From NCBI GenBank assembly GCA_020853795.1, contig JADYYF010000088.1:12820-76819 (forward strand): a stretch of 64,000 nt of DNA, written 5' to 3'. Below the pieces are notes generated by a model, which saw only the letters and a program-made list of their open reading frames with translations, was not told the DNA's origin and did no database searches. The position numbers and the translations under genes are program-made. Position 1 is the first letter of the stretch; each line of letters opens with the position of its first letter. This document shows positions 16,717 to 57,752 of the stretch, piece by piece. Origin of the DNA: Candidatus Zixiibacteriota bacterium. Its GTDB lineage: Bacteria; Zixibacteria; MSB-5A5; CAIYYT01.

Positions 16717-16733
16717 GATGCCGCCTCAATCGC

Positions 16734-19065: not shown

Positions 19066-19068
19066 CGT

Positions 19069-19746: not shown

Positions 19747-19753
19747 GGCTATC

Positions 19754-37322: not shown

Positions 37323-37880
37323 CTACGCGCGCTCGAGATATTTGCCGGTACGCGTATCGATCTTGATCATGTCGCCTTCCTTGATGAACAGCGGCACGCG
37401 GACATCCAAACCGGTTTCGACCTTGGCGTTCTTGGTCACGTTCGAGACGGTATCACCCTTAACGGACGGCTCGACCTCGATCACCTTGAGGATGACCGAA
37501 GTGGGCATGTCGAGGTTGATCGGCCGGCCCTCGAAGTAGAGGATCGTGTATTCGGCATTCTCTTTGAGGTAGTCGGCGTAGCCCTCCAATTGTTCCTTGG
37601 TCAGGAAGAACTGGTCGTAAGTAGCGGCGTCCATGAAGTAGTACTCGTCGTCGCTGTGATACAGATACTGAGTTTTCTTGTGCTCGAAGTCGGGGATATT
37701 GAAATTTTCTCCGGAGGCGAAGGTGCGCTCCACGACCTGGCCGGTCTTGATATTTTTCAACTTGGTCCAAACGTTGGCGCGGCCGCGGCCGGTCTGCGAG
37801 CGCAGAAAGTCGATGATGTAATAGGGTTCTCCTTCGATGGCAATCTTCATACCGATTCGAAAATCGCTGGTTGAAATCAT
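37323..37880 (-). CDS. efp: elongation factor P (arginine-type loop)
   Basis: 185 aa. The EPY...TGRGRANV loop aligns Arg with Lys34 of E. coli EF-P. Confidence 0.9.
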   Translation of the reverse strand: MISTSDFRIGMKIAIEGEPYYIIDFLRSQTGRGRANVWTKLKNIKTGQVVERTFASGENFNIPDFEHKKTQYLYHSDDEYYFMDAATYDQFFLTKEQLEGYADYLKENAEYTILYFEGRPINLDMPTSVILKVIEVEPSVKGDTVSNVTKNAKVETGLDVRVPLFIKEGDMIKIDTRTGKYLERA

Positions 37881-38210
37881 TATTCCTCCGTTGGCGCCAA
37901 TCGGCGCGGTCGCAATCTAACAAAGAAAAATATAATACCTCACGTTGCCCGCCTGAGGCAAGCGAATAAGTGCCCGCGGCGGCATTCGCCAGTCCGTTGC
38001 CGGGCATCACCATCGCTCGAAATATGCCATCTTCCCTACCCGCGTACCTATCGGTTGAATCCCACAATCCACCGCAAAAGCGACCGTTTCAGAGTGCACC
38101 GATCCTGCTTAATCACAACAGGATCGCCAAGTTAGGGCGGCCCTAATTGTCGGCACGTCGATTGCGCCAATCAGCAGGCAAATCACCTGTTCTGGGGAGG
38201 TAACAAACCG

Positions 38211-40187
38211 ATGAAGGAGCAAAAGACGGCCCGAGGCCGGCTGCTGGCTGTTGGCGCGCTGTTGATCGCGACGGCGGCCCTTGTGGTCAGCTGCGGCATT
38301 GAAGCACCGAAGGCCCCCAGCTGGGATACCACGCTGACGGTGCCATTAATCAACCGCACATTCACGTCCGGCGAGCTGTTCGACAAACTCGCCAGTGCGA
38401 ATATCACCACCGACAGTCTCGGCAACAACATTTTCCAGGTAATGCAGCAGCTTGATACGGTGCGGCTGGAATCGATTCTGGAGGTCGATCCGATCGCGGA
38501 CGACTACGCCAAAGCTGTCGGTTCAATCAGAATGGCGCAACCGGCGGATTTGACGCAAAGTATCAACCTGGCCGATCACATGTCGCTTGTCCTCGGCGAG
38601 GTCCCGGATACCGGCATGGCGGTCGCCACCGAGTTTGGTCCGGCAGACTCCTTCACGGAGGCGGTTGTTGACCAGGGGACACTATCAATCACGGCGACCA
38701 ACAACACTGGATTTGACCTGGACTCGCTGACCGGCGAACTGCGTCATCCGGTGAGTCATGCACTGATCGCTCGATTCGTGGCGCCGGGGGGGTTGGCGGA
38801 TAACGCCAGCCACACTCAGCAGTTTTCGCTGGACGAGCAGGCGCTCGCGGCGGACGCGGATTTTGACGTCTATTTTCACACGCCGGGCGGTCCGGCGCTG
38901 TCGCTGGCCGATCGCGCGATCGATTTTCGGCTGCAATTCGGCAATGAGATCTATGTCAGGTCGATTACCGGCGCCGTGGCGGAATTCGAGACGGAGCTTG
39001 ATCAACGGATCGGGCTCGACGAGTCAGTAGAGATTCACTCGGCACGGTTAGCCGGCGGGCAATTGCACTTTGTGGCGGTCAACAATCTGCCTTTGGGCGC
39101 GCAGTTGACGGTGACGGTTCCCGAGCTGACCACTGGCGGGCAGCCACTGCAATTCACGATCAATCCGGCGGCGCATTCACAGCAACAATACCAGCTCGAT
39201 TTGGCGGGCTGGACGTTGATTCCGGTTGACGATTCACTGCAGGCCAGAATCGAAGCGCAGATTCCCAGCAGCAACGGCGGTTACGTTTCGATCGACGAGA
39301 ACGATCGTTTCGATATCCACTTCAGTGTCGACGCCATCGAGATCGCGCAAGCAACCGGCATCGTACCACCGACGCAAGTCGAGTGGGACGCTACCGACGT
39401 AGGCATTGAAGTGCCGACGGGTTTTGAGACGGCGTCGCTCGAACTGGTCGAACTCGTCATCACCATTGCCAATCGGAGCGAGCTTTCCGGCGATATCGAA
39501 CTTGCGTTGAACGCCTCCAACGGCAAGTCGCTGACGGTGAACGGTACAATCGCTTCGGGAAGTACGCAGAGCGCCGCCGTCAGCGAGATCTATTCCGACC
39601 AAGTGGCTGATCTGCTCTCGCCGCTCCCGGACCAGATTCGCGTGGCGGGCATCACGCTCCTGGGCGACGGCGTTACCACGGTTGATTTCTCCGCTGCTGA
39701 CTATATCACCGCAACGGCGCGGTTGACGGCGCCGATGGCGTTCAGCCTGACGGCGGCGACGGTCGATGGCGACCTTAACGAACTGAAGGTCGACGAAGAG
39801 ATTTCTGATCGGGCCGACCGGCTACACAGCGGCCACTTCCAAGGCACGATCACGAATCATCTGCCGTTGGGGGCTACGATAGAAATCCACATCGCCGCCA
39901 ATCCGGACGACGTTCTGGCGCAGCCGCAGGTCGTGATCGGGCCACTGGAGTTTACGATGGCGCCGGTGGACGGCAACGGTCTGGTGACCCAGGCGTTGAG
40001 CAGTGACAATGACATCGAATTGACGCAGGAGGATCTGGGGGTTTTTGCCAACCGCACGCTTTATGTCGCTCCGGTGCTCGTCATTGCCGGAACGAACGGT
40101 CAGGTCGTGCGCATCCGCGCCAACGACTACCTCACGATATCAGGAACTCTGGAGATCCAGGCGCGCGTCGGCGGGGAGGATTTTTAA
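38211..40187 (+). CDS. large lipoprotein, function unknown
   Basis: Lipobox LVVSCG. 658 aa, rich in beta-strands. It ends 1 nt before the next ORF, suggesting translational coupling. Confidence 0.5.
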   Translation: MKEQKTARGRLLAVGALLIATAALVVSCGIEAPKAPSWDTTLTVPLINRTFTSGELFDKLASANITTDSLGNNIFQVMQQLDTVRLESILEVDPIADDYAKAVGSIRMAQPADLTQSINLADHMSLVLGEVPDTGMAVATEFGPADSFTEAVVDQGTLSITATNNTGFDLDSLTGELRHPVSHALIARFVAPGGLADNASHTQQFSLDEQALAADADFDVYFHTPGGPALSLADRAIDFRLQFGNEIYVRSITGAVAEFETELDQRIGLDESVEIHSARLAGGQLHFVAVNNLPLGAQLTVTVPELTTGGQPLQFTINPAAHSQQQYQLDLAGWTLIPVDDSLQARIEAQIPSSNGGYVSIDENDRFDIHFSVDAIEIAQATGIVPPTQVEWDATDVGIEVPTGFETASLELVELVITIANRSELSGDIELALNASNGKSLTVNGTIASGSTQSAAVSEIYSDQVADLLSPLPDQIRVAGITLLGDGVTTVDFSAADYITATARLTAPMAFSLTAATVDGDLNELKVDEEISDRADRLHSGHFQGTITNHLPLGATIEIHIAANPDDVLAQPQVVIGPLEFTMAPVDGNGLVTQALSSDNDIELTQEDLGVFANRTLYVAPVLVIAGTNGQVVRIRANDYLTISGTLEIQARVGGEDF

Positions 40188-41491
40188 TGAAACGAAACAA
40201 AATCAAAGCGATTGCGGTCGCAGCGAAACGCTCGCTCTCAGCGACCGAGCTGGGGTTGCTGGTGTTGTCGGCCATCGTGCTGGCGCTGATCCTCAGCCTG
40301 AGCGCCCGCGGTCAATCGACACGCAGCGCACGGTCGCTGGGAATGGCGGATAGCTATTTTCTGTTGTCGGCCAACAGTGACGGCGCCCTGCTGAATCCGG
40401 CCAACCTGGCATTGGCGCGCGAAAAGACGCGTTCCTTGAAGCTGATTTCGGTGGCCGGGTATGCGGCGAACAACGCGTTTTCGCTGTCGGACTACAAGAA
40501 GTACAACGGCGAATACCTTGATGAGAGCGACAAGCGCGACATTCTGAACAAGATCCCAACCGAGGGACTGCTGTTTGATGCAGCCGCCACAGCCGGAACG
40601 ATGTCGTTCTCTGTCGGGACGCTGGCGATCAATGCCGAAGTCATCGGCGGCGGCCGCGGTAACCTCTCGAAAGATCCGATCGAGTTAGCCCTGATGGGCA
40701 ACAAGATCGGTCAAGTGGTGACGGTTGCCGGCTCAGACGGCGAGTCCTGGGCAGCGGCTTCGATCGGGCTATCGTACGCGCGGCCGGCCGGCCGGATTTT
40801 TGGACGCGACTTTGCCGTGGGCGGTACGCTCAAGTATTTGCAAGGGCTGGGCTACTTCGCCGCGACAGAACTGACCGCGCAGGCGGTGACGCTGGCGAGC
40901 GGCATCGACGGCGAGGGCGGTCTCAAGACGATCAGTTCCACCGGCGGCAGCGGCTATGCCTTCGATCTGGGCTTCGCGGCGCAGGGAGCTTTTGCACAGT
41001 ACGGCATTGCCGTGCGCAACATGATCGGCCGGATGAACTGGACGAAGGAAGTCGAGCACACCGAGTACACATTTCACATCGATAACATGACCATCGACAA
41101 CGCTGACGACGACACGATTGTCGTGAGCGACGAGGTCAAATCGTCGTTGGTCTCCTACACCACCCGACCGCCAGTCGAAGTAGAGGTCGGTGCGGCGCGG
41201 CATTTCGGCAAAATCCTGACGGCCGTTAGCCTGCGGCAGGGCTTTACCGACGCCGTCTTCATTTCGAAGACTCCGCGCCTGGCGGCGGGATGCGAGTATC
41301 CGCTGGCCGGCCTGTTGGAGCTGCGCACCGGCATGGCGTTTGGTGGGGTGGATGACTTCTCACTGGGGCTCGGGCTGGGTTTGAATTTCGGTCCGGTCAA
41401 TATGGACTTGGCTTACGCGTCCTCGGCGAAACTGCAGCCGTGGGACGGCAATGGCGCCAAGCTGGCATTCTCGACAATACTTGAGTTTTAG
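40187..41491 (+). CDS. outer-membrane beta-barrel protein (PorP/SprF-like N-terminal motif?)
   Basis: Signal peptide and a C-terminal aromatic residue (..STILEF). Alternating amphipathic strands. The N-terminal SYFLLSANSDGALLNPANLA resembles the PorP/SprF motif SQYMFN..NPAYAG. Confidence 0.45.
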   Translation: MKRNKIKAIAVAAKRSLSATELGLLVLSAIVLALILSLSARGQSTRSARSLGMADSYFLLSANSDGALLNPANLALAREKTRSLKLISVAGYAANNAFSLSDYKKYNGEYLDESDKRDILNKIPTEGLLFDAAATAGTMSFSVGTLAINAEVIGGGRGNLSKDPIELALMGNKIGQVVTVAGSDGESWAAASIGLSYARPAGRIFGRDFAVGGTLKYLQGLGYFAATELTAQAVTLASGIDGEGGLKTISSTGGSGYAFDLGFAAQGAFAQYGIAVRNMIGRMNWTKEVEHTEYTFHIDNMTIDNADDDTIVVSDEVKSSLVSYTTRPPVEVEVGAARHFGKILTAVSLRQGFTDAVFISKTPRLAAGCEYPLAGLLELRTGMAFGGVDDFSLGLGLGLNFGPVNMDLAYASSAKLQPWDGNGAKLAFSTILEF

Positions 41492-41505
41492 CTAAGGAGG
41501 ATCCC

Positions 41506-43233
41506 GTGAAAATCCGTAAATCGATGCTTCTGATGCTCGGCCTGTTGCTGATCGGCGCGCTGATCGCCTCCGGTGTCGACGCCATGCCGCCGCACCCCAG
41601 CTTGCTGGAGAGCCAGGATCGTGACGGACGGCCGGAGTTGTCGCCGTTGCACAGAGTGTGTCCGCAGCCGACTCCCCTGGCCGGATCGCCGGACGGGCGT
41701 GGTTTCGGCGCCCCGCTGCGGTTCGGCGGTGCAGCCCCAACAGCGACCGGCAATATTCTGTGCATCCTAATCGAGTTTTCGGACAAGGCGGCGCAGGCTA
41801 CTGCGGTCTCGTTCGACAGCCTGATCTTCGGTAGTTATCAAGGCACAGTGAAGCACTATTACAATGAAGTCTCGTATGGCTCGTTCGACGTGGTGACCGT
41901 CAATTATCCGTCGACGATCGACTGGCAGACGGCACCGCAAACGTACGCTTACTACTGCAACGGCAATAACGGCCTCGGTTCCTATCCGCAGAACACGCAG
42001 AAGCTGTTCGAAGATGTGATCGATCTGGTTGATCCCGTTGTCAATTTCGCCAACTACGATAACAATGGGGACGGTTACGTTGATGCCGTGATGCTGGTGC
42101 ATACCGGCCCCGGCGCGGAACTGACCGGCAGCGATTTTGATATTTGGTCGCATGCCTGGGGCATCACCCCGAAATCGAAGGACGGCAAATGGCTGTCGCG
42201 CTACGCGATAATGCCGGAGTATTGGACGACTGTCGGCGACATGACTTGCGGCGTCTTTGCACACGAAATGGGTCATGCCTATTTTGAGTACCCTGACTTG
42301 TATGACATCGATTACACGTCGCGCGGCGTCGGCCGCTGGTCGCTGATGGCGGGCGGCTCGTGGAACGGCACACTCGGCAATTCGCCGGCGCATCTGGACG
42401 CCTGGTGCCGACTGCAGGCCGGCTTCACGACGGCCACCAACGTGCTGGCCAACCAGATCAACCAATCGATCCCGAATGTCGAGCAGAACGCCTCCGGCGC
42501 TATTTTCCGGCTCTGGACCAACGGCACGGTCGGGAATCAGTATTTCCTCGTGGAGAATCGGCAGAAACTCGGTTACGACGCACAACTGCCGGGCGCGGGG
42601 CTGTTGATCTGGCATATTGACGATGGCGTAAATCCGGGTGACAACAGCGACAACTCCGACGAGTGGTATCCGGGGCACACCAGTTCCGGGCATCTCCGCG
42701 TAGCGATCGAACAGGCGGACGGGCTCTTCGAACTTGAGAAGAACCTCGACAACGGTGATGCCGGCGATCCCTTCCCGGGAACTACGAATAACACGGCGTT
42801 CACCAGTCTGGCGACCCCCAATTCCAACGACTATTTGGGTCTCGGGACGCTGGTCTCGGTGACCAACATCTCGGCATCGGCCGCGACGATGAGCGCCGAT
42901 CTGGCGGTGAGCTTGATCGCCGATGTCGATGACTATGCCTACGACGGCGTATTGCCGGATGAGTATGCGCTCGACCAGAATTGGCCGAATCCGTTCAATC
43001 CCGTCACCAAGATCTCATTTGATTTGCCGAAGACCGGCGCAGTGACGCTGGCGGTCTACAATCTGCTGGGTGAAAAGATTGAGACGTTAGTGGACTGCGT
43101 GCTGCCGGCGGGCAAGCACTCGTTTAGTTGGCGGGCCGATCAGAACGGGCGCGACCTGGCTTCAGGTGTGTACTTCTACAAGTTAAATACCGAAGGCGCT
43201 TCGTTAAGCCGCAAGATGCTGCTGCTGAAGTAA
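41506..43233 (+). CDS. secreted M6 (InhA-like) zinc metalloprotease with a T9SS C-terminal sorting domain
   Basis: Signal peptide, VFAHEMGHAY (HExxH), and M6-like regions (YYNEVSYGSFDV, GDGYVDAVMLVHTG). The C-terminal type-A T9SS domain is NWPNPFNPVTKISFDLP...GVYFYKL. Confidence 0.75.
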   Translation: MKIRKSMLLMLGLLLIGALIASGVDAMPPHPSLLESQDRDGRPELSPLHRVCPQPTPLAGSPDGRGFGAPLRFGGAAPTATGNILCILIEFSDKAAQATAVSFDSLIFGSYQGTVKHYYNEVSYGSFDVVTVNYPSTIDWQTAPQTYAYYCNGNNGLGSYPQNTQKLFEDVIDLVDPVVNFANYDNNGDGYVDAVMLVHTGPGAELTGSDFDIWSHAWGITPKSKDGKWLSRYAIMPEYWTTVGDMTCGVFAHEMGHAYFEYPDLYDIDYTSRGVGRWSLMAGGSWNGTLGNSPAHLDAWCRLQAGFTTATNVLANQINQSIPNVEQNASGAIFRLWTNGTVGNQYFLVENRQKLGYDAQLPGAGLLIWHIDDGVNPGDNSDNSDEWYPGHTSSGHLRVAIEQADGLFELEKNLDNGDAGDPFPGTTNNTAFTSLATPNSNDYLGLGTLVSVTNISASAATMSADLAVSLIADVDDYAYDGVLPDEYALDQNWPNPFNPVTKISFDLPKTGAVTLAVYNLLGEKIETLVDCVLPAGKHSFSWRADQNGRDLASGVYFYKLNTEGASLSRKMLLLK

Positions 43234-43252
43234 CAGCGCGGAAACAGTGCTG

Positions 43253-43281
43253 GGGGACTCGGCTGCTCCTTCCGAGTCCCC
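43253..43281. terminator. bidirectional terminator hairpin between convergent genes
   Basis: GGGGACTCGG/CCGAGTCCCC 10-bp stem with a 9-nt loop. On the minus strand it is followed by TGTTTCC. It overlaps the stop codon of the zinc-ribbon gene. Confidence 0.45.
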
Positions 43282-43568
43282 TACATTGGCGTGAGAGGTT
43301 CACCGCCACCCGGACCGATGGAGCCGTTCCCGATATCGCCAATCGGAGGAAGATCGGGATCGAAGTCGGGTGGAAAGCCGCCGTTGGACTTCCCATTACC
43401 GCCATTTCCCCGGCCCTTCCGCTTGTACTCGGCGTAACAAGTCCGGCATCGTTTCGGGTCTTCGGTAAAACCCTTCTCGGCGAAATATTCTTGAGCGCTC
43501 TCGGTAAAGGCGAATTCCTCTTTGCAGTCGACGCAAATCAGGATTTTCACCCGATAATGTTTGTCCAT
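43281..43568 (-). CDS. zinc-ribbon protein (zf-trcl-like) with a Gly/Asn/Pro-rich tail
   Basis: CVDC...C..C with the pattern YRVKILICVDCKEEFAFTESAQEYFAEKGF..PKRCRTC. The C-terminus is low-complexity (GNGGNGKSNGG). Confidence 0.5.
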   Translation of the reverse strand: MDKHYRVKILICVDCKEEFAFTESAQEYFAEKGFTEDPKRCRTCYAEYKRKGRGNGGNGKSNGGFPPDFDPDLPPIGDIGNGSIGPGGGEPLTPM

Positions 43569-43798
43569 AAATCCCCCCGTCCCGGATTATGGATTGTTAG
43601 TTACTACACGAAGTAGCTGCTCGATTCCATCCTCACTAATGGCGCGCATCCATGCGCAGTCAATGATTGCCCAAGGGGTATTTCGCCATACCCGCTCGAT
43701 TATATCTCAGTCCACGATTTGAAAGTCAACTAAAATTTCTGCAACGGCTTACGGAAATGCCGCAACAACACTCCCGGCGGTCGCAGCCGCCGCTGCGA

Positions 43799-46700
43799 CT
43801 ACTGCAGCTTGAGCATTTTGCGAATTTCGGAGTAGCTGCCCGCCTCGAGCCGGTAGAAGTAGACACCACTCGATACCGAACGCCCGAACTGATCGGTGCC
43901 ATCCCAGGTGACGCTGCGGAATCCGGCCTCCTCGTAGCTGTCGACGAGAATCCGGACGGTCTGGCCGAGGATATTGTGCACGGTCAGACGAACATTGCAG
44001 CCCTCCGGCAGCGCATAACTGATTTGCGTCTGCGGATTGAAGGGGTTCGGATAATTCTGCAGCAAGGTGAATTCGCGCGGCAGCACCGATTCTGCCGCCA
44101 GCGAACTGACGATCGCCAACATCCGATTGCCGCTCTCGCTGCCGGAGAGCGCTGCGAGCGCCGGTCGCAATTGGCGGAAGCCCTCGGCGTACTGCCGGAA
44201 GTCCACGGCATCGGTCAAGGTCGGCGCAATCAACTGGTGCGACGAACTCCAATTCTGCGCGATGGTCAAGAGATCGGCGATGTCGATTGCGCCGTCACCG
44301 TCGGCGTCGGCATAGGTTGCCCGCGGGTCAGCCCATTCTTGCGCCTGTTTGGGCGCCCAGCCGTTGCCTTCACCGTAGAGATTGCGCGCCGGGCCTTCCT
44401 GTCCGAAGAAGACACCCAGCGGCAGAACGTCGGCTTCGTTGACGTTTCCGTCATTATTGCAGTCCCCCGGATAAACTGCCGGTCCTGTGACAAAGCGGAA
44501 GACGTAGTCGTCCACGGGCGAGCCTTCGGCGAGATTGTTGTTGTTGCCATCGAGCGAATTGCCGGACTGATCGCGCACAGTGCCCAACAGGCGCACGATA
44601 ATGGTATCATACGGCGGCAGTTTCGCCGCCGGCACCAGCCGCAGGCGGGTGTTATCGTTCAACACCGTGAAGGTCCCGGTAATCTGCTGCTGAGCGAGCC
44701 GGGCGCGCACATCGATGCGTCCGGCATCGAGGGTCGAATCGGCGAGGGGCTCGTTGAGATCAATCAGGATATCGCTGCCGATCAGCACGTGATCGGCCTC
44801 AGCGGCCGGCACGGTCGCGACCACTTTCGGCGGTTTCTGTTCGGGAATCGCCTGTGCCGCCAGAGAGACATAGAGTGTTTCGGCTACCGGGTCGTTCGAG
44901 ACGATCCGCAGAGTCCCCTGCGCCGGTCCGATCGCGGTGGGATCAAACCGTACCGGGATCTTGAAGACGCCGCCGGGCTGAATCGCCGTGCTGGCAGTGG
45001 CCAGGGGCGTAAACTGCGGTTCATCACTGAGCACATTCGAAACGGTGAAGCTCAGGAGCGGGTCCTGGGGGAACTGCAAGCGATTGTTGACATACACGGT
45101 GTCGATGTCGGTCTCATCCTCCTGAACAAGGCCGAAATCGAGAACCGCCGGAGTCACTGCGGCAATCGACAACGGATTGGAATAGAACTGCAGTCTGATC
45201 GTATCGCGCGGCGCATTACGGGCGGAAACGGCGACGACCTGAAGATCATAAGCACCTTTGGCCAGGTCGTTCGACATGGTCACGGTCGCCGTGAAGCTCT
45301 GATTGGCGAGGACTTGGGAAGAACTCAATTGTACCGTTGCCGTTCCCCGCCGCGGCGTTTGCAGAACTGACGCGTTGAGATTGATGCCATATTCATACGG
45401 GCCAAACAAGGTATCGACGTTAATTGTGAAGCGGCGCTGCAACGGCGCAGTAAGGGAGTCGACCGCAAGGAGGCGCAGATCAAAGCCGGTCGCGCGAATA
45501 TAGTCGAGGCGAATGTCGCGATCACCGGTACCGCATTCGTTGGAGGCCACGAGGTCGACCTGGTAGATTCCCGGCCGTAAATAAGTGTAGGTCGGCGATT
45601 GCTGGGTCGAGGTGCCGCCATCGCCAAACGCCCATTCCCAGCCGGTAGCCGGATAGTCGGAACTGCCGGTGAAATTGACTTGCAGCGGCGCCGAGCCGGT
45701 GAGGGGTGTGCCGGAAACAGCTGCAGCCGGCGCATCGATCACGTTGATCGCGAGCAGCATCGTGTCCTCGCCACAACCGTTGGCGGCAATCAAGCGCACG
45801 TTGTTGGCGCCAACGATATTGAACTGATGGGAGGGATTGGCCGTGGTGGAAGTACCACCGTCGGAGAATTGCCAGGCGAAGGTCAGGTCGGCTCCAAGCG
45901 ACGTGCTGCTGAAGTTTACGGTCGTACCGACACAGATGGTGGTGTCGCTTGCCGTGAATGCGGCCTGCGGCGCCGCCAGTACCGTGATCGGCCGTGTGAT
46001 CGTCACGGTATCTGTCTCGCACATGAACGTGGCACTGATCGTCAGGTCACCGGCGATCAGGAACGTTTTCGGAGACATGATCTCATCCCAGACATAGAAC
46101 GTGTCGACGTCCCCATCGCCAAAATTCCAGATCGAAGTTTGCCAGTAGGCGTTGTAGGCGGGAGTAAAGTCGACCAATTCGCCGACGCAGGGCGTCAGCG
46201 GCAACCAGGTGAAGTCCTCGACCGCCAGCTTGCAGTTTTCGTACGGGCCGATGTCGTTGGCGGCACCGACGAAGCGGGAGCTGCCCGCGAAGTCGTTAAA
46301 GTGCGCCCAGTAGGGCAAATTGCGGCCGGCATCAATGAGCGGCGAATTCGAAGACAGGCGAAAATCGCCGCCGGCGAGATTGACGAAAAGCGGATTCACA
46401 CCCTCTAAATTGCCCGCGCCTTGCGCACAGTTGATCTGCGGGAAATCAATAGGGATATTCTGATAAAAGGCGTTGTTGAAGACGAAGCTGGTGTCGCCGT
46501 TGAAGCAATTCGTGGCCGTGCCGTAATTCTCGACAAAGATGTTGTTATAAATCAGCGCCTGAGCGAAAAGCTCGCGATAGATCGCGCCGCCGCCGTCAGC
46601 GGTGGCAATAAGACTACTGTCGCGATAGAACAAATTATTGAAGAGATTGGCGTTCGTGTAATCGGACAGGAACACGGCCCCGCCGTGCCCCTGCACGGCG

Positions 46701-47473
46701 GTATTGCCGATGAAGATATTATTCTGGATCAGAATTGCTGAATCCTGCATGGACGACGAACGGCCCACGACATGGATAGCGGCACCGTCACCTTGCAGGG
46801 AGCGGTTATCTTCGAAGATGTTATTAATGATTTTGGGTTCAGAGAACTCGCAGTCCATGGCCGCGCCGCGCGCGAAGGCGATATTCTGCGCGATATAGTT
46901 GTTGCTGATGATGGAGCGGGAGTACTGCATGGCGATTCCTGCGCCCCAGATATCGGATTCAACCGAACCGTTCTGGTAAATGCGGCAGTTGCGAATTTGC
47001 GGCGAGGAGTACACACCTTCCAATCCCTGCATACTGATTGCGGTCGGCCAATAGCGCGTAATCGTAAAGCCGTCGACGATCGTCGATTCCGAGATGCCGT
47101 AGCCGAAATAGAACGCCGTGCCGTCGCCGTTGCCGTCGAGGAAGGTCGAGTCGGCGCCGCCACGGCTCTTGAACACGACCGAGCCAAAGGTGATAGTGAG
47201 ATACTCCTGGTACGTTCCCGGCTTGACCATTACCGTGTCAGTGGCGTTGAAATTGCGCTGGTTATAGGCAAACTGGATCGTGCGGAAGGGATTGGCCTCG
47301 GTGCCGAAATTGGCGCCGACGGCATCGGTGCCGTTGGTTGCGACCCAAAGCAGGCGCGCTTGCGCCGTTGACGAGAGCAAGACCACGACAAGCAGGACGA
47401 AGATAACGATGTTGATTCGCCGATTACGGTGCGCCAATTTGGACCTCTCCATTTTCGATATACAAAACTCCAT
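43799..47473 (-). CDS. giant secreted multidomain protein. Domains: right-handed beta-helix, two PKD domains, Ig-like domains, a dockerin-like module and a T9SS C-terminal domain.
   Basis: Signal peptide. Repeated beta-helix NNxFxxN motifs. PKD signatures (WQFSDGGTST, WEWAFGDGGTST). Dockerin-like GDCNNDGNVNEADVLPL and DADGDGAIDIADLLTIAQNW. T9SS C-terminal domain NYPNPFNPQTQISYALP...GVYFYRL. The ATG at 47452 is an alternative start. Confidence 0.7.
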   Translation of the reverse strand: MEFCISKMERSKLAHRNRRINIVIFVLLVVVLLSSTAQARLLWVATNGTDAVGANFGTEANPFRTIQFAYNQRNFNATDTVMVKPGTYQEYLTITFGSVVFKSRGGADSTFLDGNGDGTAFYFGYGISESTIVDGFTITRYWPTAISMQGLEGVYSSPQIRNCRIYQNGSVESDIWGAGIAMQYSRSIISNNYIAQNIAFARGAAMDCEFSEPKIINNIFEDNRSLQGDGAAIHVVGRSSSMQDSAILIQNNIFIGNTAVQGHGGAVFLSDYTNANLFNNLFYRDSSLIATADGGGAIYRELFAQALIYNNIFVENYGTATNCFNGDTSFVFNNAFYQNIPIDFPQINCAQGAGNLEGVNPLFVNLAGGDFRLSSNSPLIDAGRNLPYWAHFNDFAGSSRFVGAANDIGPYENCKLAVEDFTWLPLTPCVGELVDFTPAYNAYWQTSIWNFGDGDVDTFYVWDEIMSPKTFLIAGDLTISATFMCETDTVTITRPITVLAAPQAAFTASDTTICVGTTVNFSSTSLGADLTFAWQFSDGGTSTTANPSHQFNIVGANNVRLIAANGCGEDTMLLAINVIDAPAAAVSGTPLTGSAPLQVNFTGSSDYPATGWEWAFGDGGTSTQQSPTYTYLRPGIYQVDLVASNECGTGDRDIRLDYIRATGFDLRLLAVDSLTAPLQRRFTINVDTLFGPYEYGINLNASVLQTPRRGTATVQLSSSQVLANQSFTATVTMSNDLAKGAYDLQVVAVSARNAPRDTIRLQFYSNPLSIAAVTPAVLDFGLVQEDETDIDTVYVNNRLQFPQDPLLSFTVSNVLSDEPQFTPLATASTAIQPGGVFKIPVRFDPTAIGPAQGTLRIVSNDPVAETLYVSLAAQAIPEQKPPKVVATVPAAEADHVLIGSDILIDLNEPLADSTLDAGRIDVRARLAQQQITGTFTVLNDNTRLRLVPAAKLPPYDTIIVRLLGTVRDQSGNSLDGNNNNLAEGSPVDDYVFRFVTGPAVYPGDCNNDGNVNEADVLPLGVFFGQEGPARNLYGEGNGWAPKQAQEWADPRATYADADGDGAIDIADLLTIAQNWSSSHQLIAPTLTDAVDFRQYAEGFRQLRPALAALSGSESGNRMLAIVSSLAAESVLPREFTLLQNYPNPFNPQTQISYALPEGCNVRLTVHNILGQTVRILVDSYEEAGFRSVTWDGTDQFGRSVSSGVYFYRLEAGSYSEIRKMLKLQ

Positions 47474-48224
47474 CCAACGGCAGCAAATCGCCGCGCCAGT
47501 TGACTAGTTGCAGCGTACTCGGATCGATATTGAGATGCGCCAATCCGGAGCCGACAGCGGTGAATGTCACTTGCAGCAAAGTCGCGTCCGCTGAGACGCC
47601 TTGTGGCTGCTGGTTGCCCTTCAAAGTATAACCCACGGCCAGGTAGTTCTCGCGTTCAACCGCAAAGAAGATCGGGTCGCGACCGGCAAAGAGATCTCCG
47701 GCTTCGAAGGCGGCGACTGACATCATGGTGGAATCAAATTCCAGTCGAAAACTCGCGCCGAAGAGTGAGTCAACGTTATAAATCCGTACCTGGAAAGTGG
47801 CCGAGTCGGCATCGGTCATGGCGTGATAGATTGGCGTCACCTTAATCATCGGAACTTGTGGTTCAAGATCGATGATGATCTCGGTTATCTGGCCACCCAA
47901 CACATCCGCCGTGCGGCTGCCGCTGTAGAGAGCCACCTCCTCGGCATCAAAAGCTGTCATCGTGAAGACGCGGTCCTCGCCGATCGGCACTTCCAGTTCA
48001 ATCGTCGCTTCGCCGTTTACCATTTCTGCCGACTGGGTGATGGTCTCCATGTCGGCGGCTGTCACGGCCAAGACTATGCCGGTGACATTGCTACCGACAC
48101 CCAAATCCTTGGCCAAGGCTGAAACCACGACTTCCCGGGCACTAGCCGACGAGGGCAGATTTCCTGAGCAGCCGGCGACCAGGAGCGCCGCGCCACCGAG
48201 CAAGAACAGAAGAAGATTGCGCAT
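47424..48224 (-). CDS. lipoprotein with a cohesin-like C-terminal domain
   Basis: Lipobox LLVAGCSG. The C-terminal approximately 140 aa (FQVRIYNVDSLFGASFRLEFDSTMMSV...ATLLQVTFTAVGSGLAHLNI...) fit the cohesin beta-sandwich sequence pattern. It overlaps the 3' end region of the giant dockerin-bearing gene. Confidence 0.45.
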   Translation of the reverse strand: MRNLLLFLLGGAALLVAGCSGNLPSSASAREVVVSALAKDLGVGSNVTGIVLAVTAADMETITQSAEMVNGEATIELEVPIGEDRVFTMTAFDAEEVALYSGSRTADVLGGQITEIIIDLEPQVPMIKVTPIYHAMTDADSATFQVRIYNVDSLFGASFRLEFDSTMMSVAAFEAGDLFAGRDPIFFAVERENYLAVGYTLKGNQQPQGVSADATLLQVTFTAVGSGLAHLNIDPSTLQLVNWRGDLLPLDGVLYIENGEVQIGAP

Positions 48225-49342
48225 CAGAAGCTAAACCTCCCTCCGAAAGTGAACTCAGTGCCGGAGACATCGATCTCCCGGTCTTGGGCGGCGTCCTTGT
48301 TGGCTTTGCCGTCGTGGAGCAACAAGCGGGCGAAGAAGGTGTAATGCTTGTTCGGAGCCGTATACTCCAGTCCTGCGCCATAGGAATAGACATCGGACTT
48401 GCCGAAGAAGTTGGTTGAACTCGATTCGTAATCGTTGGCGGACAGCGAGCGGTAGCCGCCGGTAACCGAAGCTCGCACCGTCGGGGCCAGCAGGTAGGAT
48501 AGCGTGCCGCCGAGAACCAACTTGTTGCTGTTGGAATTCTGTTCTTCAGTGGTCAGCGAATTGCCGAACAGGATCGAGTTCTTCTGGCGAGCGATGTAGC
48601 CTAAATACGCCTGCACTCCGGCTTTACCGAACTGGTTGCGTTGGCCCAGCAGAATCGACATCACGCCACCACTCTTAAAGACTTCGCGGCTCCCGACTTT
48701 GTCCGCCAGGTAGTAGCGGTACGACAGGTCAATATCGGTGCTCGACGTTTCGGTCGCGGAGGCGGTAGCGGAGAATTGGAGGCTGAACTCGTCGCCGGGA
48801 TTGTACTTCTCGCCGTTCTCCTGATAGGTAAAACCGCCATTGAGATTGTAGCTGACCGAGGCGCCGTAGGCAAGCCAGGCATTCGCTTCGGTAGCGAAGC
48901 CCAACTGCCCGATCAGGCCGAAGCCCTGAGTCACCTGCTTGACCGGCGTGGTCAAGTAATCATCAGAGATCAACTCCGCCAGCCGCACCTCCACCGTGTC
49001 CAACTCCGAGGTTCCGGAGGGAAGCTGGAGGCCGAGCGAAGCAAACATCCGGTCGTCGGCGAATGCGCGGTAGGCGCGCAGCGTCGTACCGGAAAATGAA
49101 GTCAGGGTCGCATCGAAATCGCCGTAATCGTAGTTTGAGCGGCTGATGGCGCTATTGAAGTGGACTTCCCAATTGTCCTGCAACGGGATCATTACCATGA
49201 AGGGGAAGGCTGACTGGGTGAGGTTAGTTTCCTCGCCGCCGGCAGTCAGCTTCCAGCTTTGGTAAACAACGCGCGCTGAAATTACTTTCGACTGGCCGTA
49301 CACGATTTGAGCGGTAAGATTCGCAGTCGCAAACAGAGTCAA
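48224..49342 (-). CDS. outer-membrane beta-barrel protein
   Basis: C-terminal ...GGRFSF. Alternating hydrophobic strands. The signal peptide is probably encoded from a non-ATG start just upstream (LIPTICALTLFATANLTAQ). Confidence 0.45.
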   Translation of the reverse strand: MTLFATANLTAQIVYGQSKVISARVVYQSWKLTAGGEETNLTQSAFPFMVMIPLQDNWEVHFNSAISRSNYDYGDFDATLTSFSGTTLRAYRAFADDRMFASLGLQLPSGTSELDTVEVRLAELISDDYLTTPVKQVTQGFGLIGQLGFATEANAWLAYGASVSYNLNGGFTYQENGEKYNPGDEFSLQFSATASATETSSTDIDLSYRYYLADKVGSREVFKSGGVMSILLGQRNQFGKAGVQAYLGYIARQKNSILFGNSLTTEEQNSNSNKLVLGGTLSYLLAPTVRASVTGGYRSLSANDYESSSTNFFGKSDVYSYGAGLEYTAPNKHYTFFARLLLHDGKANKDAAQDREIDVSGTEFTFGGRFSF

Positions 49343-49380: not shown

Positions 49381-50685
49381 TCAGTTCGGCCTCCCTCGCA
49401 CAATCACGGTACCGCGGCTTTCGCGCGGCGCGACATATGGATTTTCATTTTCGGGAGCCACCCCGCGTGTCGATTCTTGCAGCCGCTGCATTACTTCGCT
49501 GCGATCGACTTGCTGCGCCGGTTGCTGTTCTTCGGTGCCGAGGCTGGTCAGTTCGACAACCTGGCTGATCGGTTTCAACTGGCCGTTATAGTCACTCAGG
49601 CCACCGAATTCCTGCAACGCTTGTTGCGCCAGACCGAAGTTCGGGTCTTCCTTGGCGGCTTCCTTGAACTCGGCCTCGGCCAGGGCATATCGTCCCTGGT
49701 CGACATATTCCAGCCCGCGCGAGTAAGCCACCAGCGCCAGCATCGATTCGGTTGCCGGTTTGGCAATCGCGTGGCGCAGTTCGGGGGTGATCTCATAGCC
49801 CATGGTCTGAATCAGATCAAGACTGAGGCGCTTCTGCATCTGGAAAAACTCATTGAGCTTCCCTTCCTGCTTCTGCGGATACTTCGCCATCCCGGGGCCG
49901 ACGTCGATAATGCCGGCGTCGATTTCCAGGCCGCTTTCGGAACGGCCGGTGAGTTTGCCGGTCACGACGCGCGCGGCACCAACCAGGCGGCCGACCCGGG
50001 GCGAGTGATACTTGTCGGAAAATTCCGTCTGGCTGAGTGCCAACTCCTTGCGCAATTGATCAAGTTCCAGCCGCTCCACCAGGCTGAGGCCTTCAACTTT
50101 TGCAAGATCGGCATAAACCAATTCGGCGATACCGCGCCCCAGAGGTTGGTATTGAGCGGGCAGCGAATCGGCGTCAAAACGAATCACCGCGACGGCGTTT
50201 GACGGGATCTTATCGGTATTGATGTTTTTCTCATTGGCCACGGCGCCGCTAACGATGGTCTTCAGATTCTGATCCTCTAACCACCGCAAGCGCTGTCGGA
50301 TCTCCGTCGCGATACGCGGGTCGTTCTTGCCGGAGACGTAAGTGCGGTACAGCGCCCGCGCCTCGTCATTCTTCCCCAGGCGCTCAAAGGTCATGCCTTG
50401 GTAAAGCGTCGTGGTGGCATCATCCGCCTTCAAACGCGCCGCCTGGTCCAGTGCGTTTTGCGCCTGCGTCAGGCTGTCGAGATTGAAGTACGCGATGCCC
50501 AGGGAACGCCAGGCTTCGGACTTGTTCGGAGAGGTTTCGGTCTCGCGCTGATAAACAGCGAGTGCCTTCTCATAATCGCCCCGCGACAGGGCGCGGGAGC
50601 CGGTACTTTGCCTGCCGGCGGCACAGCCGGCCACCAGGCCGGCCAGTGCGATCAGGACTGCCGCTTGGAGAAATCCGTTTCTCAT
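49381..50685 (-). CDS. TPR-repeat lipoprotein with a central CsgG/LpoB-like domain
   Basis: Lipobox GLVAGC. TPR-like helices flank a core AVIRFDADS...GRGIAELVYADLAKVEGLSLVERLELDQLRKELALSQTEF...VGRLVGAARVVTGKL typical of the CsgG-like fold. Confidence 0.5.
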   Translation of the reverse strand: MRNGFLQAAVLIALAGLVAGCAAGRQSTGSRALSRGDYEKALAVYQRETETSPNKSEAWRSLGIAYFNLDSLTQAQNALDQAARLKADDATTTLYQGMTFERLGKNDEARALYRTYVSGKNDPRIATEIRQRLRWLEDQNLKTIVSGAVANEKNINTDKIPSNAVAVIRFDADSLPAQYQPLGRGIAELVYADLAKVEGLSLVERLELDQLRKELALSQTEFSDKYHSPRVGRLVGAARVVTGKLTGRSESGLEIDAGIIDVGPGMAKYPQKQEGKLNEFFQMQKRLSLDLIQTMGYEITPELRHAIAKPATESMLALVAYSRGLEYVDQGRYALAEAEFKEAAKEDPNFGLAQQALQEFGGLSDYNGQLKPISQVVELTSLGTEEQQPAQQVDRSEVMQRLQESTRGVAPENENPYVAPRESRGTVIVRGRPN

Positions 50686-51692
50686 TGGGTATTCGACTTA
50701 ATCTCCAACTCTACGCGTTGCTTTTGCTCCGAGGCCAACACGAAATTCGGAGAGATTTCGAGCGCCTGGGCGAAGCACTTGTTTGCCTCTTCCAGTTTGC
50801 CCGCTTCGCGATAGGCCAGACCCTGACCGTAGAGGATCGTCGAAGCCAAACTGACGTCGGGAACGCGTCCGGATGCCTTCTTGATCGCCTCGGCCTGAAC
50901 GTTAAAGTAGGTCAAGATCGAATCGGCGACTTGGGTGATCAACTGACCGATCTTGCCTTCCTTGCCTTCGATATCCACGACTTTCTTCGGCAAACTGGTC
51001 TCGGTGTCGATGATGCGGGCAATGATCTTGACCTTATTGCCATCCATCTTCATGAAGGTACCGAAGACGAAGTTCTGCACGCCGACCAGCTTGCCAACCT
51101 GAACGCGGTTGTTCTGATCCGCCAGGTCGCTTTGAGAGAGTTTGAGTTCGTCGAAGATGTAATTGAAATTCTCGCGGGCCGGCACATAAACGACGCCGGA
51201 CTGCGTTAACGAGCTGTTGATCAACGCGGCGATCCCGACACCGGCGGTGGCATACTTCTCAGCATCCATGATCGAGCCGTTGTTGAAGTCGGAGGCAAAA
51301 ACGGTGACCGCTTTGGCCGCCTGCCCCGGTTTGAAGCCCGTATCGTTCACGAACTTGATCCAGGCGTGGCCAACCAGCTTTGGCTCTTTGTCGGGATTGA
51401 ACGCGGTGGTCGGGTCGAGCTTGACAAGCACGGCCAGGTAGTTCTGCGCCAAGTCGGGCTGTTTCGCCTGAGCAGCAGCGCGTGCCAATAGCTGGATGAT
51501 CTTGACGCTGTCGGGCGTGGTCATCCCCGGCGCGGCCAGCAGATCCTTGGCTTTCAGCACTACCTGATCAAATTGCGCGTCGTAGTAAAGGTTCTCTAAT
51601 TTCTTGAGATCGTCACTGACGGCGGCCGTAGCGTTTGCGACAAAGCAGACGGCGAGCACCAATGCGATCAGCGTCGTGGTTAGAGTCTTCAT
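50682..51692 (-). CDS. paralogous secreted TPR / CsgG-like domain protein
   Basis: Signal peptide. Core KAVTVFASDFNN...RVQVGKLVGVQNFVFGTF..GNKVKIIARIIDTETS with TPR-like ends. It overlaps the previous gene by 4 nt. Confidence 0.5.
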   Translation of the reverse strand: MKTLTTTLIALVLAVCFVANATAAVSDDLKKLENLYYDAQFDQVVLKAKDLLAAPGMTTPDSVKIIQLLARAAAQAKQPDLAQNYLAVLVKLDPTTAFNPDKEPKLVGHAWIKFVNDTGFKPGQAAKAVTVFASDFNNGSIMDAEKYATAGVGIAALINSSLTQSGVVYVPARENFNYIFDELKLSQSDLADQNNRVQVGKLVGVQNFVFGTFMKMDGNKVKIIARIIDTETSLPKKVVDIEGKEGKIGQLITQVADSILTYFNVQAEAIKKASGRVPDVSLASTILYGQGLAYREAGKLEEANKCFAQALEISPNFVLASEQKQRVELEIKSNTQ

Positions 51693-55938: not shown

Positions 55939-55952
55939 GGGGTCTCCCGGGG

Positions 55953-57752
55953 TTAGTATTGGCATGGCGGCGGGCCGCCGGCAAAGATATACGAAATCAG
56001 ATGCACGGCATCACTAATGGAACCGATGCCGTCGCAGTTGACATCGGCGATGTAGCTCGGGTAGGGTGTAGCGCCGCCGGCGAAGATCCAGTTGATCAAG
56101 AAGACGGCGTCGGAGATGCTGATCTGAGTGTCGCCGTCGACATCGCCGGGACGGCGAAAATGCAGATGATACGTGAAATTGTACTCGGTGCCGAAGTGCG
56201 CGGCGACAGCGGGAATGAACGTGACGCGCAGCACATTCCGGAAATCGGCGATCCAGACCTTGGCCTTGCCTCCGGCAAGCGGCACGAGCAGCGAATCAAA
56301 GTAGTTGCCGTCGCCGTAATCCACCACATACGCCAATGTCCAAGTGGTGGCGTTCAGGCCGGTGAAGTCGAACCCGACGATGCCGTCATAGCCGTTAAGA
56401 TTTTCAAAGACGATATAATTCGAGGCATACGGCTGCGGCGGAGTCACCGAGAAATTACCCGAATCGGGGAGGTCGTAGTGATAAGCCATCACATCGACTG
56501 GTGGATAATCGGGCGCGGATTCATAGTGTGTGCCGGTGGAGCGGCTGTTGGTGTAGTAGTTCCACAGCACGAAGCGCGTAAACTCGCGTTCGAACGAGCT
56601 TCCGGCCGAGTCGATTACAGCGCCCCAGGCTACGATTGCGGAGGTCGTGCGGCATTTTGCCCACAGATCGCGCATGATGATGGCACCGAAGCGTTCCTCA
56701 AGGTACTTCGGCCACACGAACGAAGCGTAGCGATGAAAATCGCCGGCCTGTAACCCGACCTCCGGATAGTTGAAGAATTCCGGTAGGTAGTTGTAGTTGT
56801 CATTCACTTGCGGAAACGCCATCTCTTCCATCCAGGTGGACGACATCTCCATAAAGAAACTAGCTTCCGAAACATCGTAGGCGAACTGCACGGCGTGGTA
56901 GAACTCGTGGGCAATCGTGACTTTGAGCGCACCCATCACATCGCCCTCGGGATCGTCGTTCGGTGGAAATCCCGGCGAGAAGGTGCTGTGGATCACGATA
57001 TGGGAGGCGTAATCGTTCCACGATTCGGGACCAGGTGACTCGGGAGTCGTGTACCCGTAGTATGGAATTTTTTGGAAGTAGATATCGTATTGATCGCTGC
57101 CGCCCTGGCCGTTGTCGACCGGCGGTTTAAGATGCGCCAGTTGGTCGAGTTCATAGGACCAAACGGAATCGGCGAGGTTCGCGGCACGTTCGATGAAGTC
57201 GGGAATTCCGGACGAATCATTGTCGGCCGTCGGTACAGCGTGCAGGCCAGTGAGGTCGAAGAAAAGCCGGAAGTAGCCTTGCGGCGACTCGACGTAGAAT
57301 TGCGTCTGTGGTCGGGCCATAAACATCTTGGCATACGAGCCGTAAAGTTCGGGATTGGCGTTGATCACGGCAAAGGCCTCGACGAGGGCATCAGTCGCGC
57401 ACTTCGAGATGGCGGCGGATTCGCGCGAATAGCGCTGGGGAAGCGATTGCGGTTCAAGAATTGCCATTGCCCGATAGATCGTGGCCATGTCGGCACTAAT
57501 CAAGCTCGACTGCTGGTCGGCAGCGAGTTGTTGTTCGAAAAGAGATGGCGAAGTCGTCGGAGCCTCATGAGCCAGGAGTGCCGGGCTGAGCAAGGCGATG
57601 TAAAGAAGTGATAGAAGTCTGCGCAATTCAACAACCTTCAGGACAAGACGGTACGGTGACTGGCACGAAATACACTTCGACGAATGCAATATACTCCCGC
57701 CGTTGCGGTTTGTCAAGTACAGTTCCGGCAATGGCTTAAGGGTCGTTTTCAA
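55953..57752 (-). CDS. paralogous secreted gluzincin with a C-terminal dockerin-like tandem module
   Basis: TIAHEFYHAVQFAYDVSEASFFMEMSSTWMEE. C-terminal GDVDGDTQISISDAVFLINWIFAGG...VNCDGIGSISDAVHLISYIFAGGPPPCQY. The true start is probably an internal GTG near 57635, just before the signal peptide LRRLLSLLYIALLSPALLA. Confidence 0.55.
   Translation of the reverse strand: MKTTLKPLPELYLTNRNGGSILHSSKCISCQSPYRLVLKVVELRRLLSLLYIALLSPALLAHEAPTTSPSLFEQQLAADQQSSLISADMATIYRAMAILEPQSLPQRYSRESAAISKCATDALVEAFAVINANPELYGSYAKMFMARPQTQFYVESPQGYFRLFFDLTGLHAVPTADNDSSGIPDFIERAANLADSVWSYELDQLAHLKPPVDNGQGGSDQYDIYFQKIPYYGYTTPESPGPESWNDYASHIVIHSTFSPGFPPNDDPEGDVMGALKVTIAHEFYHAVQFAYDVSEASFFMEMSSTWMEEMAFPQVNDNYNYLPEFFNYPEVGLQAGDFHRYASFVWPKYLEERFGAIIMRDLWAKCRTTSAIVAWGAVIDSAGSSFEREFTRFVLWNYYTNSRSTGTHYESAPDYPPVDVMAYHYDLPDSGNFSVTPPQPYASNYIVFENLNGYDGIVGFDFTGLNATTWTLAYVVDYGDGNYFDSLLVPLAGGKAKVWIADFRNVLRVTFIPAVAAHFGTEYNFTYHLHFRRPGDVDGDTQISISDAVFLINWIFAGGATPYPSYIADVNCDGIGSISDAVHLISYIFAGGPPPCQY

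Follow-up and report, generated by a model that had tools for sequence, protein, structure and literature searches.

The analysed locus occupies positions 38211 to 43233 of the window, which here means the whole 64,000-nucleotide stretch of contig JADYYF010000088.1 that was analysed, and it encompasses three genes in the same orientation, listed here with two Shine-Dalgarno-type sequences that were read directly from the sequence, one of them just 5' of the locus:

38194-38200, forward strand: GGGGAGG, Shine-Dalgarno-like, 10 nt 5' of the lipoprotein ATG
38211-40187, forward strand: lipoprotein gene (ORF, 658 aa; no Pfam or NCBIfam match)
40187-41491, forward strand: outer-membrane barrel gene (ORF, 434 aa; DUF5723, FadL fold, PorV/PorQ-related)
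41494-41500, forward strand: AAGGAGG, Shine-Dalgarno of the protease gene, 2 nt past the barrel stop codon
41506-43233, forward strand: gene for an M6 (InhA-like) secreted metalloprotease (ORF, 575 aa, GTG start)

The lipoprotein stop codon TAA (40185-40187) and the barrel start codon ATG (40187-40189) share one nucleotide within the string TAATG, and the tight coupling of these genes that had been read from the window earlier is thereby upheld, with the correction that they overlap by 1 nt instead of lying 1 nt apart. Overlapping or closely spaced lipoprotein and barrel genes were also observed in most related loci, and the AAGGAGG of the protease gene is separated from its GTG by 5 nt. Full-length homologues of conserved size were detected for all three genes in many metagenome-assembled genomes (MAGs), which indicates that the three ORFs are genes and not chance reading frames, with the closest named match being a candidate division Zixibacteria MAG. 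A promoter and terminator scan of positions 37800-43700 yielded a number of sites no higher than that in shuffled sequence.

The earlier description of the third gene as an M6 metalloprotease that bears a type-A sorting domain of the T9SS was confirmed by the following features:

41764-42615, forward strand: M6 catalytic domain (TIGR03296, PF05547)
42262-42276, forward strand: HEMGH, residues 253-257, intact in the translated sequence
42982-43221, forward strand: type-A T9SS sorting domain (TIGR04183, PF18962)

The protease scored 194.3 bits against TIGR03296 (cut-off 110.8) and 66.7 bits against PF05547, and its C-terminal domain scored 29.4 bits against TIGR04183 (cut-off 23) and 27.5 bits against PF18962 (cut-off 27), so that an M6 peptidase domain, an HExxH motif and a TIGR04183 C-terminal domain are all present. 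CHU_C (PF13585), which Pfam names as a T9SS signal domain and which we take to be the type-B domain, reached 14.7 bits on the same protein, against a threshold of 27.

The lipoprotein displays a signal peptide, a short conserved tail and an array of repeats, with the following coordinates:

38211-38294, forward strand: signal peptide and lipobox VVSC, read in the translation, with the lipidated Cys28 at 38292-38294
38295-38366, forward strand: conserved N-terminal tail of the mature protein, residues 29-52, its core PKAPSWDTTL lying at 38307-38336; putative docking element
38616-40184, forward strand: four tandem homologous beta-sandwich repeats, delimited as internal repeats
38616-38975, forward strand: repeat 1, residues 136-255
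38976-39365, forward strand: repeat 2, residues 256-385
39366-39770, forward strand: repeat 3, residues 386-520
39771-40184, forward strand: repeat 4, residues 521-658

Searches of Pfam and NCBIfam with the lipoprotein returned no family above threshold, and weak, sub-threshold matches to Germane, ArfA_OmpATb_N, PEP_CTERM_QFxxD and LIC_11026 were discarded. A word-index search recovered 26 homologues, whereas a profile search (E<=1e-3) placed the family size at 2,592 clusters at 50% identity. In the AF2 model, which has a mean pLDDT of 84.2, the protein is all-beta, and its top structural match is 4h3w (BDI_1231), an entry without literature. Differential conservation was observed along the protein: Cys28 is invariant among 22 homologues, and residues 31-45 form the best-conserved 15-residue block (0.69 vs ~0.47 for the rest of the protein, across 14 sequences that span several phyla), the tail stretch also being the best-conserved search pattern in the family alignment (A2), and its motif persists in homologues at ~21% identity as well as in a second clade of the pair, which is introduced below. 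The acidic lipoprotein export signal that marks Bacteroidota surface lipoproteins (PMC12578637) is absent from this protein, in which Cys28 is followed by GIEAPK with a single acidic residue, and the lipoprotein may therefore face the periplasm.

The barrel matched DUF5723 (PF18990) with 60.2 bits (E 3.8e-16; gathering threshold 26.8) and belongs to this family, which was also matched by 25 of its 30 homologues. Its fold is FadL-like, as in the PorV/PorQ family, and the combination that marks FadL/TodX proteins, this fold together with an NPA motif near the N-terminus, was likewise found. Among the NCBIfam profiles, PorV_fam (NF033709) scored 31.7 bits (E 1.1e-7), which lies below the curated cut-off of 90 and so leaves the barrel outside that family as defined; it was nevertheless the commonest NCBIfam match, recovered for 29/30 homologues at sub-threshold level (best E 8.2e-10), and PorV was also the best sequence match of the barrel in the PDB (E 3.9e-5). 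The generic porin that had been offered as an alternative is not what was found, as the fold is that of FadL and the nearest sequence family is PorV/PorQ, whose members are shuttles and anchors of the T9SS. The conserved N-terminal segment of the barrel is located as follows:

40325-40411, forward strand: barrel N-terminal motif, residues 47-75, SARSLGMADS...NPANLA, with NPA at 40394-40402; it encloses the motif quoted in the preliminary description

Within this segment SYFLLSANSDGALLNPANLA occupies residues 56-75. Residues N70, P71, A72 and L74 are invariant among the 30 homologues, which shows that the motif quoted earlier is real and under selection. Its comparison with PorP/SprF did not hold, as the segment aligns with the N-termini of PorV (6h3i_F), TbuX and TodX, and it thus represents the "NPA" motif at the N-terminus of the FadL superfamily, not one specific to PorP/SprF.

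The distribution of the pair was assessed by a locus search of genome contigs with the lipoprotein alignment A2 as query, and the co-occurrence counts of pair and cargo gene rest on ~30 loci. The barrel gene lies directly 3' of the lipoprotein gene at every locus with enough downstream sequence, except L023-L025, where three distant lipoprotein homologues have no adjoining barrel. The pair is shared by a number of FCB-type lineages without cultivated members: it is present in Zixibacteria; in Krumholzibacteria (L006); in Eisenbacteria (L026, L028); in KSB1 (L027); in a MAG labelled Bacteroidota (L030); and on a further contig (L031). The last two loci represent a second DUF5723 clade, preceded by a lipoprotein homologue with the same N-terminal motif, which the A2 HMM detected at E 2e-21 and 1e-33, respectively. 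A gene for an M6 protease with a sorting domain was observed directly 3' of the pair only in Zixibacteria, where it occurs in four unrelated flanking contexts: an EF-P block (the window, L001, L003 and L004); L015, L017 and L019; L020; and L029. No M6 gene was seen beside the pair in another Zixibacterium, in Krumholzibacteria, KSB1 and Eisenbacteria, in the Bacteroidota-labelled MAG or on the further contig, and beyond the main clade of Zixibacteria there are at least seven loci where the cargo gene is missing beside the pair. At the two Eisenbacteria loci an M14 peptidase is the neighbour instead, with a sorting-domain match that is weak and sub-threshold at most, and at one of them (L028) it lies on the opposite strand. 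The linkage of orthologous barrels to T9SS-domain genes, set out beforehand as a check, is thus seen at the Zixibacterial loci in their four contexts and is lacking in most other lineages; the pair is far more broadly conserved than the cargo gene. Since the cargo gene is absent at these seven or more loci, a T9SS role of the core pair can be held as a candidate only, and the core role of the module appears to be independent of the M6 protease.

These results bear directly on the preliminary description, in which the barrel was likened to PorP/SprF proteins and a cargo-specific T9SS adaptor was suggested. That the barrel belongs to the PorP/SprF family and shuttles or tethers the adjoining M6 protease as its specific T9SS cargo now seems highly improbable. 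The likeness lies in an outer-membrane barrel that is encoded beside, and in the same orientation as, a gene for sorting-domain cargo, in the NPA within its N-terminus, and in the recurrence of the trio of lipoprotein, barrel and M6 genes in Zixibacteria. However, neither PF11751 nor TIGR03519 matched the barrel at E<=1 in Pfam and NCBIfam; only 1/30 of its homologues reached E=0.098 against the PorP/SprF profile; and the N-terminal motif is shared with PorV, TbuX and TodX. In Bacteroidota the PorP/SprF shuttles that are linked to cargo act on sorting domains of type B, whereas type-A domains all use PorV (PMC12618676, PMC9143113), and the neighbouring cargo here is of type A; furthermore, the pair is retained without cargo in other phyla. 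A connection to the T9SS does persist in that PorV/PorQ is the nearest family and the M6 gene follows in Zixibacteria, but the distribution of the pair beyond the cargo speaks against a cargo-specific role, so that the earlier description was right in part on function and wrong on family.

Membership of the FadL superfamily raises a second possibility, that the barrel is a channel of the FadL type which takes up hydrophobic compounds or products of proteolysis, with the lipoprotein as its substrate-binding partner, and that with the protease they constitute a nutrient-acquisition locus. The fold and the NPA motif are those of such channels, but PorV, which is not a transporter, also keeps this motif, and the profile of FadL, TodX and TbuX (Toluene_X, PF03349) did not match the window barrel and matched only 4/30 homologues weakly (best E 3.9e-4). 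The gene context likewise gives no hint of a metabolism of hydrocarbons or fatty acids, the neighbouring genes in most other lineages are unrelated to nutrient use, and the M14 gene at L028 is not co-oriented with the pair. FadL channels are not known to have a lipoprotein partner, whereas the barrel here possesses one. An uptake function is accordingly judged to be unlikely.

A barrel adjoining a lipoprotein can also be compared with BamG, which anchors the surface lipoprotein BamH through the conserved lipidated N-terminal tail of the latter, the genes bamG and bamH being adjacent in many FCB lineages (PMC12611786, PMC12578637). The same arrangement, a barrel beside a lipoprotein whose lipidated N-terminal tail is conserved, was found in the window, and by analogy with BamH the tail is proposed to be a docking element. 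The pair could then be the equivalent of BamG-BamH itself, in which case the barrel would bind to BamA at its back and keep the lipoprotein above the BAM complex, aiding the assembly of complex outer-membrane proteins, and the protease would be incidental. In contrast to BamG, however, the window barrel gave no match to the BamG profile (NF053685), which 2/30 homologues reached at E 0.004, and a PDB profile search with the barrel returned no BamG chain at E<=10. The lipoprotein has no detectable sequence similarity to the BamH chains (9n2d, 9hj3, 9hjm), none of which stands among the fold-search matches listed, and no link to BamA was seen. The N-terminus of BamG is ~10-12 residues longer than that of FadL and threads the lateral opening, whereas the motif of the window barrel begins ~4 residues past the predicted signal-peptide cleavage ARG|Q, as compared with 12 residues before the aligned position in TbuX; this speaks against an extension, insofar as the predicted cleavage site and the sequence alignment, on which the comparison depends, are correct. 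Equivalence to BamG-BamH is improbable.

A change from transporter to dock for surface proteins has taken place repeatedly among the FadL-like barrels of the FCB superphylum, the known cases being PorV, which holds PorU as well as cargo, PorQ, which holds PorZ, and, since 2025, BamG, which holds BamH. The reading we tentatively favour, while placing it somewhat below an even chance, is that the two genes at 38211-41491 specify a conserved outer-membrane module of two components, in which a FadL-fold DUF5723 barrel docks a lipoprotein of four beta-sandwiches. By analogy with the known docks, the barrel and the lipoprotein would form a stoichiometric complex, the barrel being its dock in the membrane and gripping the lipoprotein by the N-terminal tail, while the beta-sandwich array would project from the membrane. 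The M6 metalloprotease with its type-A sorting domain would have joined the operon in a Zixibacterial lineage, and this platform would then probably retain the protease, or position it, at the cell surface after its export by the T9SS; like PorV and PorQ, the barrel may bind the sorting domain of the protease. Under the docking model the locus points to another widely conserved lineage of dock barrels with a partner family of its own (~2,600 clusters at 50% identity), found in phyla for which metagenomes are nearly the sole source of knowledge, and the model, if true, would provide a handle on how the outer membrane is built and decorated in these organisms. The present gain is modest, namely a corrected family assignment and a gene pair that can be annotated.

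A further reading, which is rather doubtful, extends the docking module towards secretion, with the pair as an undescribed T9SS outer-membrane component of uncultivated FCB-type phyla, composed of a barrel of the PorV/PorQ lineage and an obligate lipoprotein held by its lipidated tail, which would be threaded or docked, and devoted in Zixibacteria to shuttling or anchoring the M6 protease. PorV and PorQ themselves have no obligate co-translated lipoprotein partner, as the barrel here does, and the latter, unlike them, shows no linkage to any T9SS gene in most lineages. Bacteroidota employ one general PorV for all type-A cargo (PMC12618676), and a shuttle or anchor dedicated to a single type-A cargo is an arrangement not known in them. 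The protease link, if functional, would represent a first case of a PorV-like barrel that is linked to a cargo of type A.

Within DUF5723 at large, a family to which no function is assigned and which the window barrel resembles in its profile match above the gathering threshold, the partnership with a lipoprotein is limited to some clades, and a distant member (L032) has no such neighbour. The DUF5723 protein of P. gingivalis, Q7MT24, is listed beside PorA/PG2172 (Q7MT25), a proximity in accession order only.

The lipoprotein, barrel and protease genes occupy a contiguous plus-strand block:

38211-40187, plus strand, lipoprotein gene, 658 aa (ORF)
40187-41491, plus strand, barrel gene, 434 aa (ORF)
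41506-43233, plus strand, protease gene, 575 aa, GTG start (ORF)

In the window the block lies between minus-strand genes, with EF-P and RNase HII as its upstream neighbours and a small treble-clef zinc-finger gene downstream, and is therefore most simply read as a three-gene operon. The lipoprotein TAA (40185-40187) and the barrel ATG (40187-40189) have one base in common (TAATG, 40185-40189), so the genes overlap by 1 nt; the contiguity behind the earlier claim of translational coupling holds, with the junction being an overlap and not a stop 1 nt before the barrel. AAGGAGG directly precedes the protease GTG. The window, where EF-P adjoins the operon, lacks a divergent WYL/HTH regulator gene that five related loci carry immediately 5' of the lipoprotein gene and that may control the module:

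4815-5765, minus strand, regulator in L004
4744-5721, minus strand, regulator in L015
790-1767, minus strand, regulator in L017
4744-5736, minus strand, regulator in L019
136-1155, minus strand, regulator in L020

Pfam assigns the barrel to DUF5723 (PF18990, 60.2 bits; threshold 26.8) and matches it marginally to TraF_2, its NCBIfam match is to PorV/PorQ alone and is sub-threshold (31.7 bits against 90), and none of the PorP/SprF models of Pfam and NCBIfam matched it at E<=1. A similar pattern was observed for its homologues, among which the PorP family was matched only once.

Families matched among 30 barrel homologues (number matched, best E-value)
DUF5723: 25/30, 1.7e-35
PorV_fam: 29/30, 8.2e-10
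TraF_2: 19/30, 4.8e-7
PorV2: 12/30, 2.8e-5
Toluene_X: 4/30, 3.9e-4
BamG: 2/30, 0.0042
PorP family: 1/30, 0.098

AF2, run on the 30-sequence alignment, gave a confident model (mean pLDDT 83.8), and the next match in the structure comparison was OmpG (16.5). The N-terminal stretch that the preliminary description likened to the PorP/SprF motif spans residues 56-75 and is strongly conserved, with invariant N70, P71, A72 and L74. In a PDB profile search its alignment partners were the N-termini of PorV, TbuX and TodX, so it is the NPA segment general to the FadL superfamily and not a PorP/SprF signature. It is very improbable that the barrel is a PorP/SprF adaptor, as this reading is contradicted both by the profile searches and by the rule that in Bacteroidota type-B sorting domains are served by PorP/SprF shuttles and type-A domains by PorV (PMC12618676, PMC9143113); the family named in the preliminary description is wrong. 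In the searchable literature DUF5723 itself receives passing mentions only, in two papers.

The lipoprotein carries a signal peptide and a VVSC lipobox whose Cys28 is invariant in 22 homologues, and its sequence is identical to an entry from a candidate division Zixibacteria MAG. Searches of Pfam, NCBIfam and PDB sequences gave no match. It has no acidic export signal of the Bacteroidota type and may therefore face the periplasm. Among 1.84 billion cluster representatives searched with a profile, 2,592 matched at E<=1e-3, 677 of them at E<=1e-30, with lengths mostly of 650-700 aa in the 150 matches listed; the named members, from Zixibacteria, KSB1 and Eisenbacteria, are all 'hypothetical protein'. 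AF2 predicts an all-beta structure (mean pLDDT 84.2, pTM 0.60), and hhalign exposed four tandem homologous repeats (residues 136-255, 256-385, 386-520 and 521-658), with three repeat pairs at 85-94% probability. The best-conserved 15-residue block, residues 31-45 (0.69 against ~0.47 elsewhere), directly follows the lipidated cysteine, and the consensus of this tail, C-x-[IL]-[EK]-x-P-x-[AS]-P-x-W-[DT]-T-x-L, is kept even at ~21% identity (L023-L025).

Approximately 30 loci were compared: barrel homologues led to L001-L006, scanning genomes for matches to the lipoprotein profile to L007-L025, and further family members to L026-L032. The barrel gene lies immediately 3' of the lipoprotein gene in all loci with sufficient sequence except L023-L025, mostly with a start/stop overlap or a short gap, including Krumholzibacteria (L006), Eisenbacteria (L026, L028) and KSB1 (L027). 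The pair also occurs in a second DUF5723 clade of ~460 aa, in a Bacteroidota-labelled MAG (L030) and contig L031, where the upstream protein is a lipoprotein homologue (E 2e-21 and 1e-33 with the HMM of the lipoprotein alignment) that retains the tail motif; no lipoprotein partner accompanies a DUF5723 gene that is more distant still (L032). No description of the lipoprotein family or of its pairing with the barrel was found in profile libraries or searchable literature.

The distant homologues at L023 5995-8112 (labelled KSB1), L024 5944-8046 and L025 5941-8085 have a near-perfect tail motif and no barrel gene found in their flanks; the L023 homologue shares its 3' end with an overlapping radical-SAM gene. 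The lipoprotein gene of L003 (6028-7998) is broken into two ORFs and the barrel gene of L013 (8052-9285) into three, reflecting either assembly frameshift errors or pseudogenisation. Several MAGs with Zixibacteria-type loci (L007-L009, L011, L014, L020, L022) are labelled 'uncultured Ignavibacteria bacterium' or 'Ignavibacteriales', labels that look unreliable: identity to the window protein reaches 93%, and Zixibacteria give the closest named protein match.

The third gene proved, as described earlier, to encode a bona fide M6 protease (TIGR03296, 194 bits; HEMGH at residues 253-257) whose sorting domain is of T9SS type A (TIGR04183, 29.4 bits; cut-off 23). Among the ~30 loci, only Zixibacteria-like ones have such a gene after the pair, with four unrelated sets of flanking genes (the EF-P block, as in the window; L015/L017/L019; L020; L029). 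In another Zixibacterium (L005) it is missing, each of the six frames 3' of the barrel being closed, and it is also missing beside the pair in Krumholzibacteria, KSB1, Eisenbacteria, L030 and L031; most lineages have no T9SS gene adjoining the pair. The Eisenbacteria neighbour is an M14 carboxypeptidase gene, on the opposite strand in one locus; any sorting-domain signal in its product is weak at best (E 0.034). What is conserved as a unit is the lipoprotein-barrel pair, with the protease as a lineage-specific third gene; the proposed T9SS-linked outer-membrane module survives in part, inside Zixibacteria and with another barrel family, and its core role is wider than the single cargo first proposed.

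In the FCB superphylum, FadL-like barrels act as docks, not transporters, in three solved systems (PorV, PorQ and BamG), PorV having type-A cargo and PorU as partners and PorQ having PorZ; systems of this kind, in which such a barrel docks a surface or periplasmic partner, are already known. The BamG groove grips the conserved lipidated N-terminal tail of the surface lipoprotein BamH (PMC12611786, PMC12578637), and the two genes are adjacent in Ignavibacterium, Salinibacter, Fibrobacter, Gemmatimonas, Caldithrix and Chitinophaga (PMC12611786, Supplementary Table 1). The present pair likewise joins a FadL-fold barrel to a co-translated lipoprotein whose tail is its most conserved element. By the same logic as in the PorV, PorQ and BamG systems, we infer that barrel and lipoprotein would form a stoichiometric complex, with the tail as docking element. 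Orthology with BamG-BamH agrees with the fold, the side-by-side genes, the tail conservation and the housekeeping gene neighbourhoods, but is unlikely given that the BamG and BamH profiles gave no match, that the barrel, judged from its predicted cleavage site and a sequence alignment, has no apparent N-terminal extension and that BamH chains are absent among the fold-search matches listed. A T9SS-related role is tentatively favoured over a BAM-related one, since the closest sequence relatives of the barrel are PorV and PorQ and not BamG, the BamG-type extension shows no sign, and the type-A cargo gene stays in the operon through several rearrangements in one Zixibacterial lineage. In P. gingivalis W83, the UniProt accession of the DUF5723 protein Q7MT24 adjoins that of the T9SS component/cargo PorA/PG2172 (Q7MT25), a numbering, not a gene position, which hints that a cultivated species may encode such a barrel near a T9SS protein.

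A second coupled pair was observed in the window, comprising a 372-aa barrel without a Pfam family (48224-49342, minus strand) and a 266-aa cohesin-domain lipoprotein (47424-48224, minus strand) overlapping by 1 nt, within a cohesin-dockerin cluster:

43799-47473, minus strand, cluster region
47424-49342, minus strand, cluster region
53911-57752, minus strand, cluster region
61857-63833, minus strand, cluster region

Dockerin domains occur in at least four proteins near the cohesin lipoprotein, among them a 1224-aa beta-helix/PKD protein that combines the dockerin with a type-A T9SS sorting domain and two MXAN_6640/DUF6055-type metalloproteases with HExxH. The arrangement, syntenic in L001, L003 and L004, suggests a cohesin-dockerin display system with its anchor in a Gram-negative outer membrane; none of the searched papers named Zixibacteria together with dockerin. 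Immediately upstream of the 372-aa barrel and on its strand lie two TPR lipoproteins (49381-51692, minus strand) that have a weak CsgG-like segment and may be part of the same surface-assembly cluster, and a Ser/Thr protein kinase gene (51746-53728, minus strand) with a weak, sub-threshold C-terminal PEGA-domain match sits between them and the dockerin metalloproteases. Elsewhere, a flagellar export/hook cluster (6903-21328, minus strand) encodes MinD/FlhG-like, FlhF, FlhA, FlhB, FliP, FlgE and FliK proteins; the ORF at 19069-19746, between fliK and flgE at the expected flgD position, is weakly matched by an HMM from the M6/sorting-domain proteases, likely because of a FlgD Ig-like domain that is also matched by the T9SS sorting domains of this genome.
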